Made by a program: the position numbers and the translations under genes. Of a stretch of DNA of 64,000 nt, positions 53,331 through 54,366 are shown one piece after another (the stretch's first letter is position 1; every line of letters starts with the position of its first letter). The notes beneath the pieces were generated by a model. It had not been told where the DNA came from. It made no database searches and saw nothing but the letters and a program-made list of their open reading frames with translations. Where the stretch lies: sequence record MG770228.1; one strand, written 5' to 3'. Source of the stretch: Escherichia phage PMBT57.

Positions 53331-53537
53331 ATGTTTAAGTTCTTAGACCTTATCTGGGCAGTCATTTTGCTGGTTGCTACAGGCTTTGTATATGGCTTCT
53401 TGCTCCCATCAATGATGTCTGCTTTAGACAGCATCATTGTTGTTATGGGCTTGATAGTCTGTATTGTGTGGCCTCTTATCGTAGGCCGTATCGTTTATCT
53501 TACAGTTAAGAAAAGGATGAGAAGAAAACATGTATAA
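53331..53537 (+). CDS. small membrane protein (68 aa, two TM helices), possible partner of the SPFH protein
   Basis: Start moved to the ATG preceded by GGAG (track start is TTG inside the terminator); hydrophobic helices; 8-nt overlap with the SPFH gene. Confidence 0.55.
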   Translation: MFKFLDLIWAVILLVATGFVYGFLLPSMMSALDSIIVVMGLIVCIVWPLIVGRIVYLTVKKRMRRKHV

Positions 53538-54366
53538 GTACATTGCAGTAGCAATTGCAGGGCTAATCATTGCTCTAAGTTTAACGAGCTGCTATGACCG
53601 AGTTGAACCAGGTAATGTAGGTATTATCGTTAATCGTCTCGGTGAAGATAAAGGTGTGGAAAATGAGGTTAAAGGTGTAGGCCGTTACTGGCTCACTTGG
53701 AATGAAGAACTTTATACATTCCCGACCTTTAAGCAGATGAAGACCTATGACGGTCTGTTCTACTTCCAACTGTCTGATGGTACTCAGATAGGCCACCAGA
53801 TGGCTATCAGCTATAAAGTGAACCCTACTAAGGTAACTAATATCTTCCAGACGTATCGTAAGGGAGTTAATGAAATTACTGAGCAGGATTTACGACAACG
53901 TATTGCTGATGTACTTAACAGACAGGGTAACCTGATTAACACTGATACCTTTATTGATGGTGGTAAATCTAAGCTACTGGATAGTGTCACTGACACAATC
54001 CGTAAAGAGATGGAACCAGTGGGGATTGATATTATTGCTATCTCCTGGATTGGTGCTCCTGAATACCCTGATAACGTTAAACGTGCCATTAATGCCAAAG
54101 TAGAAGCTACTCAGAAAACTCTGCAACGTGAGCAAGAGATTCAGCAACGTGTAGCTGAAGCTAATATGGAACGTGAACAAGCTAAGGGTGTAGCAGATGC
54201 TATTCTGATTAAGGCTAAAGCAGAGGCTGATGCTATTCGTTTACGTGGTGAAGCACTCACTGAGAACCCAAATGTAATGCAACTGGAAGCCATTAATAAG
54301 TGGAATGGTACATTACCTACCACAATGATTCCTGGGGCTACTACACCTTTCGTTAATGTGAAATAA
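53530..54366 (+). CDS. SPFH (stomatin/prohibitin/band-7)-like membrane protein
   Basis: N-terminal membrane anchor (AVAIAGLIIALSLTSC), central domain, and C-terminal coiled-coil rich in E/A/K/R (QREQEIQQRVAEANMEREQAKGVADAILIKAKAEADAIRLRGEA), the typical SPFH layout. Confidence 0.55.
   Translation: MYKYIAVAIAGLIIALSLTSCYDRVEPGNVGIIVNRLGEDKGVENEVKGVGRYWLTWNEELYTFPTFKQMKTYDGLFYFQLSDGTQIGHQMAISYKVNPTKVTNIFQTYRKGVNEITEQDLRQRIADVLNRQGNLINTDTFIDGGKSKLLDSVTDTIRKEMEPVGIDIIAISWIGAPEYPDNVKRAINAKVEATQKTLQREQEIQQRVAEANMEREQAKGVADAILIKAKAEADAIRLRGEALTENPNVMQLEAINKWNGTLPTTMIPGATTPFVNVK

Follow-up and report, generated by a model that had tools for sequence, protein, structure and literature searches.

SPFH proteins form closed cages that fence off patches of membrane, and their purpose in bacteria is debated. 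The described systems include the FtsH modulators HflK and HflC of Escherichia coli, the mitochondrial prohibitins PHB1 and PHB2, and the operons of the QmcA-YbbJ (SPFH-NfeD) type, in which an SPFH gene is accompanied by a gene for a small membrane protein. In phages, the MbpV/MbpS pair of the Staphylococcus Kayvirus group has been the object of speculation only as to its function (PMC7150955), and in a 2026 paper on an N4-like phage it is considered unclear why an SPFH gene is carried by a phage (PMC13239085). A functional study of gp19 or gp20 of coliphage N4, or of any phage SPFH protein, was not found in the literature searched. The present report deals with this pair of genes, gp19 and gp20, located at positions 53,331 to 54,366 of a stretch of 64,000 nucleotides (nt) of Escherichia phage PMBT57 (sequence record MG770228.1); the whole of the analyzed stretch is referred to as the window.

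The 1.8 kb around the pair showed 98.7% DNA identity to phage N4 and 99.5% to phage VEc25. By this identity the window is that of an N4-type coliphage, genus Enquatrovirus, and its pair of open reading frames (ORFs) of 68 and 278 amino acids (aa) is coliphage N4 gp19-gp20, i.e., genes already annotated. The N4 reference lists gp19 as "membrane protein" and gp20 as "lipoprotein", and in other records the gp20 counterpart is annotated as "SPFH domain-containing protein". Both ORFs were located exactly where an earlier reading made from the letters of the window (the sequence-only reading) had put them, including the 8-nt overlap between the gp19 stop and the gp20 start (ATGTATAA), which suggests that gp19 and gp20 are made together. 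An 80-aa form of gp19 with a TTG start (from 53295) was rejected, since it would cross a terminator upstream of the pair and the homologues begin at the ATG. The genes and the start signal of the first are as follows:

53322-53325, + strand: Shine-Dalgarno sequence GGAG of gp19, 5 nt 5′ of the ATG, read from the sequence.
53331-53537, + strand: gp19, a predicted 68-aa two-helix inner-membrane protein and SPFH partner (phrog_1130 family; AlphaFold2 model).
53530-54366, + strand: gp20, a predicted 278-aa SPFH/Band 7 lipoprotein of family phrog_200 (Pfam, PHROG, model and Foldseek).

Profile and model evidence makes gp20 a true member of the SPFH/Band 7 proteins, of the prohibitin/HflK type, and gp19, judged from the loci compared, is a conserved two-helix partner that goes with the SPFH gene as one cassette, so that the pairing is real. 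The best explanation of the data as a whole, to which a probability of about 0.45 is given, is that the mobile N4 gp19-gp20 cassette encodes a periplasm-facing, lipid-anchored SPFH cage in which gp19 would be a subunit. In the literature searched we found no mention of the family of conserved partners, of the lipid anchor and its retention-type residue at +2, of the fused forms or of the breadth of the distribution.

The gp20 sequence matched the Pfam family Band_7 (PF01145) over residues 24-210 with an E value of 1.7e-23 and 84 bits, far above the gathering cut-off of 23.6, and the PHROG family phrog_200 over its full length (E 6.8e-95). In the AlphaFold2 (AF2) model, with a mean predicted local distance difference test (pLDDT) value of 77.7, an N-terminal helix is followed by the SPFH1/2 region (residues 22-178), a 65-residue helix (181-245), a short second helix and C-terminal strands. 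A whole-chain Foldseek search of the PDB gave prohibitin 8rrh first (E 3.8e-14) and then HflK/C (7vhq, 7wi3), erlin and stomatin, with matches to these four kinds of protein at E 1e-14 to 1e-10; QmcA and flotillin were ranked below them. Prohibitin-2, HflK and prohibitin were the only PDB matches of the gp20-family sequence profile, the best of them being that of the coiled-coil helix region to prohibitin-2 (AEAxAIxLxGEALxxNP). Close to the C-terminus a family signature was recognized, in which K257, W258, G260 and P263 are invariant in alignment A2, and the motif W[DN]G..P was present in 122 of 150 distant gp20 representatives. These results bear out the SPFH-like core and the long coiled coil that had been proposed for the 278-aa protein. 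The corresponding features of gp20 are:

53599-54159, + strand: SPFH (Band_7) domain, residues 24-210 (Pfam match; AF2 strands and helices 22-178).
54070-54264, + strand: predicted long coiled-coil helix, residues 181-245, counterpart of the SPFH-cage wall helix (AF2, Foldseek and sequence profile).
54298-54318, + strand: family signature K-W-N-G-T-L-P, residues 257-263, before the short C-terminal strands (alignment A2).

No specific NCBIfam model was matched by gp20. A protease function, given by the product name "serine protease" in the AL25, OLB145, P88 and Stx phage records, was rejected, because Band_7 alone was detected. This product name has been spread by annotation transfer (OW991345, MH992123, LC567838, MK416019 and others); it is unsupported for these phage proteins and should be replaced. 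Membership in a known anti-phage defence system was rejected as well, since none of the PADLOC defence-system families was matched by gp19 or gp20.

The sequence-only reading had assigned a membrane anchor to the N-terminus of the 278-aa protein. Instead of a transmembrane (TM) anchor, a lipoprotein signal peptide was recognized at this position:

53530-53592, + strand: predicted gp20 lipoprotein signal peptide with the lipobox L-T-S-C, the Cys21 codon at 53590-53592, followed by Tyr-Asp (sequence; kept in homologues).

The N-terminus reads MYKYIAVAIAGLIIALSLTS-C21-YD and consists of a positive n-region (MYK), a hydrophobic h-region (YIAVAIAGLIIALS) and LTS-C21, in agreement with the lipoprotein pattern of n-region, h-region and lipobox [LVI][ASTVI][GAS]C. 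The N-terminal membrane attachment of gp20 would thus be by lipid, which is unusual among SPFH proteins. In the 120 closest gp20 homologues the Cys of the lipobox L-[TVS]-[GS]-C was kept in 108, and was preceded by LTG or LVG in 99. The residue after the Cys (position +2) was Asp or Glu in 51 of the 120, which come from temperate phages and plasmids; in 57 copies from N4-like phages it was Tyr or Trp. In enterobacteria, Asp at +2 is reportedly the classical signal for retention in the inner membrane, an effect also reported for aromatic residues at this position. Among the 150 distant representatives, about two-thirds had a lipobox-type Cys and a minority a hydrophobic signal-anchor alone, with no Cys; for the latter the inner membrane is the sole possible site. 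The lipobox and +2 residues, together with these signal-anchored distant homologues, indicate the periplasmic face of the inner membrane as the probable location of the SPFH domain. Taking into account also the topology of the fused forms and the charge bias of the partner (see below), the SPFH domain of gp20 should face the periplasm.

The residues at +2 bear as well on a different location, in which gp20 would be an outer-membrane lipoprotein at the inner leaflet (for example, at a receptor or at the Lpp/peptidoglycan layer), while gp19 would only assist in assembly or export. The putatively lipidated Cys of N4 gp20 is followed by Tyr and not by Asp, and many distant homologues have Ser, Thr or Gly, which at +2 are the default outer-membrane signal in E. 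coli. However, the enterobacterial temperate and plasmid copies carry Cys-Asp or Cys-Glu (51/120), the classical Lol-avoidance signal, the aromatic residues are those said to act in retention, and homologues with an uncleavable anchor or a fused two-TM domain must be in the inner membrane, the partner itself being an inner-membrane protein. An outer-membrane location is therefore regarded as improbable.

Two further observations were made on the N-termini of gp20 homologues. The Cys-less members of the closest set (P0081, P0082, P0084, P0085, P0088, P0089, P0091, P0100, P0104, P0109, P0120 and P0050) have Tyr or Phe at the place of the Cys (…IIG-Y-DRVEPG), the context of P0088 being an SSU5-type phage-plasmid; judged by this sequence they cannot be lipidated at the lipobox site and may be anchored by an uncleaved signal peptide. 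In the Pseudomonas phage Clew-1 (L095, 1946-2060) the annotated SPFH start looks too late: a lipoprotein signal, …LLAIAALAITAG-C-SKVPAGY, is encoded in frame further upstream, and as this stretch has no ATG, a start at another codon is suggested.

The partner protein gp19 showed two hydrophobic segments in a hydropathy scan and two helices, at residues 2-29 and 34-67, in its AF2 model (mean pLDDT 74). It matched the PHROG family phrog_1130 (E 2.7e-20), which the PHROGs database places in the category "moron, auxiliary metabolic gene and host takeover". Together with the adjacency of the two genes across phage backgrounds, the predicted helices and the hydrophobic segments uphold the earlier proposal of a 68-aa two-TM protein that is a true SPFH partner. 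Relatives of gp19 at 21-45% identity keep Y21, P26, S30 and G40, and P48 is invariant in the ten sequences of alignment A1 and nearly so in alignment A4. In the loop between the helices these relatives have the common motif YG-x-L-[LV]-P-[SA]-[LM]-[IV]-S-x-x-[DS]:

53406-53432, + strand: gp19 loop between the helices, residues 26-34 (PSMMSALDS), with invariant P26 and S30 (alignments A1 and A4; charge distribution).

The mean net charge in the gp19 family was +1.8 for the N-terminus, −0.2 for the loop and +3.1 for the C-terminal tail. According to the positive-inside rule, this bias indicates that both ends are cytoplasmic and the conserved loop is periplasmic, and the loop of gp19 (residues 26-34) is accordingly predicted to lie in the periplasm, the compartment expected for the SPFH domain of gp20. 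When the same phages were compared, gp19 was found to diverge much faster than gp20 (45% versus 82% identity, and 25-28% versus 62-65%).

In the sequence-only reading the pair had been likened to a miniature SPFH-NfeD operon, with gp19 as a cut-down NfeD protein. As a claim of family membership this is already refuted. There is no Pfam family for gp19; gp19 and nine relatives gave no NfeD match (E <= 0.1-1) and no consistent Pfam match; the gp19-family profile found no relative at E <= 10 among the PDB entries, of which the QmcA-YbbJ SPFH-NfeD complex (8z5g) is one; and the OB-fold domain of NfeD (PF01957) is missing from gp19, whose 68 aa leave no room for it. The operon logic is shared, in that an SPFH gene is adjacent to and, given the 8-nt overlap, co-translated with a gene for a small membrane protein. 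Nevertheless, the conserved element of gp19 is a predicted periplasmic loop and gp20 is predicted to be exported, whereas QmcA and the soluble domain of NfeD are reportedly cytoplasmic, and a kinship of this sort is considered highly improbable.

A gp19-family ORF was found directly 5′ of the SPFH gene in every locus with sufficient upstream sequence, the two genes overlapping by 1-20 nt or being separated by a 3-nt gap; locus L073 showed no such ORF, but its contig ends about 200 nt upstream of the SPFH gene. When the search was seeded from the gp19 side, a Band_7 gene was immediately downstream in 9 of 9 places. A single-sequence tblastn search with gp19 reaches 22 phage records, and the distribution of the partner was taken from the SPFH-seeded loci. 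A gp19-family gene stands beside an SPFH gene in at least six unrelated phage backgrounds. The backgrounds include N4-like podophages; SSU5-type phage-plasmids, with the pair between recA and a DUF1281 gene; a Shigella boydii lambdoid prophage, where the pair belongs to the leftward early operon and lies between the repressor and integrase genes; prophages whose replication module is of the PolA/DUF2800/Enc34 type; and enterobacterial elements of about 90 kb. Vequintavirinae (phage BIS47) also have the gp19-type gene, with one small ORF between it and the SPFH gene. Phage Stx2_95 has the SPFH gene at the position equal to that in the S. boydii prophage, and its record annotates no small gene. 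Every locus examined contained a single SPFH gene per cassette and no paralogous heteropair.

Additional evidence for the pairing came from fused forms. A HMMER search gave 2981 gp20-family matches at E <= 1e-3, with 169 at E <= 1e-30. In 10 of the 150 best representatives a gp19-type domain is fused to the N-terminus of the SPFH protein (hidden Markov model E values of 1e-14 to 3e-5), and in one of the 150 it is located C-terminally. The fused proteins consist of two TM segments, a basic linker of varying length, a signal-like TM segment ending in a lipobox Cys, and the SPFH domain, an arrangement that is topologically consistent only with a cytoplasmic gp19 tail and an SPFH domain outside. 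The ten fused representatives are diverse metagenomic singletons known from protein sequence alone. A 347-aa enterobacterial fusion (P0074) was not accepted as fusion evidence, since it depends on a one-A difference in an A7 run and was seen in two contigs only. Runs of A6/A7 occur at the gp19-like/SPFH junction of the elements of about 90 kb (L098 5180-5290, L101 5180-5290 and L109 3180-3290), where one-base differences lead to a 78-aa, a 72-aa or the fused 347-aa product; these differences could be due to sequencing error, phase variation or a slippery site.

A far wider generalization of the preferred reading would be that many phage lineages build a periplasm-facing SPFH cage from a lipoprotein and a two-TM protein, that this cage sequesters a universal host machine (FtsH or the like) in lytic growth, and that the fused precursor is cut at its internal lipobox by lipoprotein signal peptidase. 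This is regarded as unlikely. If it were true, the fused ORFs would encode a membrane polyprotein that releases a lipoprotein from an internal signal peptide, for which we know of no description.

Homologues of gp20 were detected by tblastn in 702 of 50,697 phage records (about 1.4%), belonging to Staphylococcus Kayvirus (MbpS), Pseudomonas Bruynoghevirus-type, crAss-like, Caulobacter phiCbK, jumbo and Stx phages, among others. Outside the enterobacterial phages the adjoining small membrane protein is of another kind: MbpV with one TM segment in Kayvirus, a 3-TM protein encoded downstream of the SPFH gene in crAss cr128, and a 1-TM neighbour in Clew-1. In phage ST4, a related member of Enquatrovirinae, the RNA polymerase II (RNAPII)-gp17-gp18 segment and the downstream ATPase gene are kept, and the gp19-gp23 block is missing from the syntenic site (L107), from which it follows that the cassette is accessory. 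Judged by these comparisons of loci, gp19-gp20 is a mobile two-gene accessory cassette.

The pair had also been described as bracketed by two strong terminators, and the hairpins at both ends, each with its U-run, are real:

53297-53319, + strand: upstream intrinsic terminator after gp18, with a 7-bp GC-rich stem, a 3-nt loop and T6 (hairpin 53297-53313; −13.6 kcal/mol, z −2.76).
54373-54402, + strand: downstream intrinsic terminator, with a 9-bp stem, a 5-nt loop and a T-run (hairpin 54373-54395; −14.3 kcal/mol, z −4.13).

Both sites are annotated as terminators in phage AL25. The bracket as such, on the other hand, is not special. Ten strong + strand terminators of this kind were found between 44.6 and 60.1 kb (44648, 45767, 46353, 47796, 51954, 52894, 53297, 54373, 58383 and 60104), and on this strand a terminator follows each of gp16, gp17, gp18 and gp20. 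Around the pair terminator-like sites were enriched (7 versus 1.7 ± 1.4 expected), and promoter-like sites were not (8 versus 8.2 expected). In the part of the window from 44500 to 64000 there were 29 terminator-like sites versus 11.6 expected and 26 sigma70-like promoters versus 57 ± 6.7 expected. Such a depletion of promoters and enrichment of terminators is consistent with transcription by phage polymerases and a graded attenuation. A weaker second hairpin (GGGGTTAATGACCCT; 53263-53277, + strand) was noted right after the gp18 stop, 20 nt 5′ of the main terminator stem.

A sigma70 promoter belonging to the pair itself was looked for and rejected: the sole promoter-like site in question (53216-53244) lies upstream of the terminator, which ends 11 nt before the gp19 ATG. 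Since no room for a promoter is left, transcription of the pair would take place by read-through of a leaky gp18 terminator. The products of gp15 and gp16, located just upstream of the pair, are early proteins that make the middle RNAs, and the middle genes follow (PMC4496689). From the location of gp19-gp20 on the same strand, just downstream of these N4 RNAPII genes, we infer that they are transcribed in the pre-replicative (early/middle) phase. In the temperate-phage copies, where the cassette lies within early operons, a promoter or terminator of its own was looked for and not found, and a moron-type promoter/terminator bracket was rejected for these copies. In temperate phages the cassette is thus probably expressed with the early lytic operon and not from the prophage.

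The gene directly upstream, gp18 (52942-53256, + strand), belongs to the Pfam family GP17, "superinfection exclusion gene product 17" (P22 gp17-like; E 2.4e-56), and forms a single-gene cassette of its own between the terminators at 52894 and 53297. This neighbour is one reason to consider competition at the level of the envelope, in which the pair would block the entry of superinfecting-phage DNA through the inner membrane or blunt a membrane-acting host defence in lytic growth. In N4 the pair comes directly after gp18, each unit being closed by its own terminator, and the absence of the cassette from ST4 shows its accessory character. In the elements of about 90 kb a Tad2-like gene is found about 700 bp 3′ of the cassette (L098 6730-7305; L101 6736-7305), the Tad2 family being named for an anti-Thoeris (anti-defence) protein, and a TIR-domain gene is near the cassette in one prophage. 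The filing of the gp19 family among moron and host takeover genes points in the same direction, as do the probable early expression and the predicted periplasm/inner-membrane location, which known exclusion proteins share. Nevertheless, neither Imm of phage T4 nor any other known exclusion family is related in sequence, no PADLOC match was obtained, and neighbourhood is weak evidence in mosaic early regions. Moreover, the temperate copies lie in a repressed early operon without a promoter of their own, so that lysogens would not be protected, and hosts as different as Staphylococcus, Bacteroides and Caulobacter argue for a universal target and not for a phage-specific route of entry. Envelope-level competition is ranked second among the possible roles, and is considered somewhat unlikely.

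The genomic location in Kayvirus suggests a different role, as the homologous mbpV-mbpS pair is found between the endolysin gene lysK and the transglycosylase gene tgl. The cage would here be a helper of lysis timing or secretion, confining lytic proteins (holin-like or exported) or the Sec machinery. The resemblance of MbpV to holins was pointed out by the authors describing it, who speculated that MbpS aids the Sec-dependent export of Tgl (PMC7150955). N4 displays lysis inhibition (10.1101/2025.11.12.688109), and the cage would in this way stabilize the membrane in the long lysis-inhibited latent period of N4 or help in the export of lytic enzymes. In size and topology gp19 is class-II-holin-like, and a faint match to Phage_holin_3_6 was obtained (E 0.044). 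An identification of gp19 as a holin was rejected, since the match reached 14.3 bits versus a cut-off of 28.4, in one member only and not in common with the relatives, and since the N4 lysis genes are gp60-gp63. These genes are far from gp19-gp20, neither of which is mentioned in the paper on the minimal lysis set (10.1101/2025.11.12.688109), and in most phages the cassette is found among replication/early genes, outside the lysis cassettes. Ranked third, this role is quite unlikely.

According to the preferred reading, that of a periplasm-facing SPFH cage, gp20 would be exported and, with its Cys21 lipidated, would remain at the inner membrane on its periplasmic face, where it would oligomerize into a closed cage by analogy with HflK/C, prohibitin, erlin and stomatin. 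The gp19 protein would be located in the membrane with both ends cytoplasmic, its conserved periplasmic loop binding gp20, and would be either an integral-membrane subunit of the cage or a client enclosed by it. Both proteins would be made together, before replication, and the cage would fence off a patch of the inner membrane and control whether a host membrane machine can reach its substrates while the phage loads membrane proteins of its own. As to the role of such a cage, control of a universal host membrane machine is ranked first, with the universally conserved FtsH-type quality-control protease as the prime candidate, because the proteins most similar to gp20 in both sequence and fold act as scaffolds of FtsH-family proteases at the membrane side that is predicted for gp20; the occurrence of the cassette in phages of very different hosts would likewise be explained by a universal target. 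This assignment, which is made by analogy, is tentative and should be read as possible rather than probable.

Several points weigh against this reading. Oligomerization, lipidation, localization and the contact between gp19 and gp20 are all inferred from sequence and from models of the monomers. Tyr or Phe replaces the lipobox Cys in 12 of the 120 closest homologues, and in N4 gp20 the residue after Cys21 is Tyr and not the canonical Asp, which makes retention in the inner membrane less certain than in the temperate-phage copies. As a candidate HflC equivalog (TIGR01932) gp20 was rejected, with 19.6 bits versus a cut-off of 134.4, and its identity to the HflK/C and prohibitin chains over the fold alignments is 16-18%. 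Since gp20 also has no counterpart of the transmembrane helix of HflK/C and prohibitin, FtsH binding cannot be assumed. Finally, the neighbours suggest other roles, namely the exclusion family of gp18 in N4, the Tad2-like gene in the elements of about 90 kb, and the endolysin and transglycosylase genes in Kayvirus.

Other neighbouring genes in the window were recorded. Among the early/middle genes, gp17 (52000-52872, + strand) is a Hoc-like Ig-domain head decoration gene; its longest ORF has 290 aa, 11 codons more at the start than in the N4 annotation (279 aa). Downstream of the pair, gp21, gp22 and gp23 occupy 54429-55182 (+ strand). They encode a 74-aa Cys/His-rich protein with a zf-UBP match under the threshold, a 118-aa HNH endonuclease (E 8.6e-20) and a 56-aa protein with two hydrophobic segments recognized by eye, respectively; the last may be another small two-TM membrane protein.

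Among the known systems closest to the locus is the Kayvirus pair (Staphylococcus phage K group). With about 30% identity (E 3e-15) MbpS is homologous to gp20, and an overlapping small membrane-protein gene precedes the SPFH gene, as in N4. However, in the pair of Staph1N (L096, 1621-2720) MbpV has 102 aa, with one TM helix followed by a charged tail, and does not belong to the gp19 family, and the Kayvirus pair is located in the lysis region (lysK to tgl), unlike the N4 pair. A functional analogy only can be drawn with Imm/Sp of phage T4, an early small two-TM inner-membrane protein and a periplasmic membrane-anchored protein, respectively, which have no sequence or fold relation to gp19-gp20.

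The QmcA-YbbJ operons resemble gp19-gp20 in the combination of an SPFH gene with a small membrane protein, with a fold match of gp20 to 8z5g at E 9e-8. They differ in the NfeD OB-fold of the partner and in the membrane orientation, which is reportedly opposite, and the sequence and fold matches of gp20 to QmcA are weaker than those to prohibitin and HflK. Prohibitin PHB1/PHB2 (8rrh, 9o9z) is the best match of gp20 by fold and of its family by sequence; oriented to the non-cytoplasmic side, it serves as the scaffold of an FtsH-family protease, but it is a heteromer of eukaryotic mitochondria that has a transmembrane anchor, and its identity to gp20 is only 16-18%. HflK/HflC (7vhq, 7wi3, 9cz2) share with gp20 the order of SPFH1/2, coiled coil and C-terminal part (Foldseek E 5e-13 to 1e-10), and their SPFH domain lies on the periplasmic side, as predicted for that of gp20 at the inner membrane. 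In contrast to HflK/C, the phage cassette has a single SPFH gene and not a K/C heteropair, gp20 carries a putative lipid anchor instead of an N-terminal transmembrane helix, it is shorter, with 278 aa versus the 419 aa of the full-length PDB chain of HflK, and it has a dedicated two-TM partner, which HflK/C are without.

In comparison with these systems, gp20 would represent a compact, single-gene, lipid-anchored form of SPFH protein with a dedicated 68-aa partner, the hosts being enterobacteria, Pseudomonas, Caulobacter, Bacteroides and Staphylococcus. As N4 is genetically tractable, the pair offers a minimal system for what an SPFH cage does, and allows one to ask whether phages use it to manipulate host membrane quality control or envelope defences.

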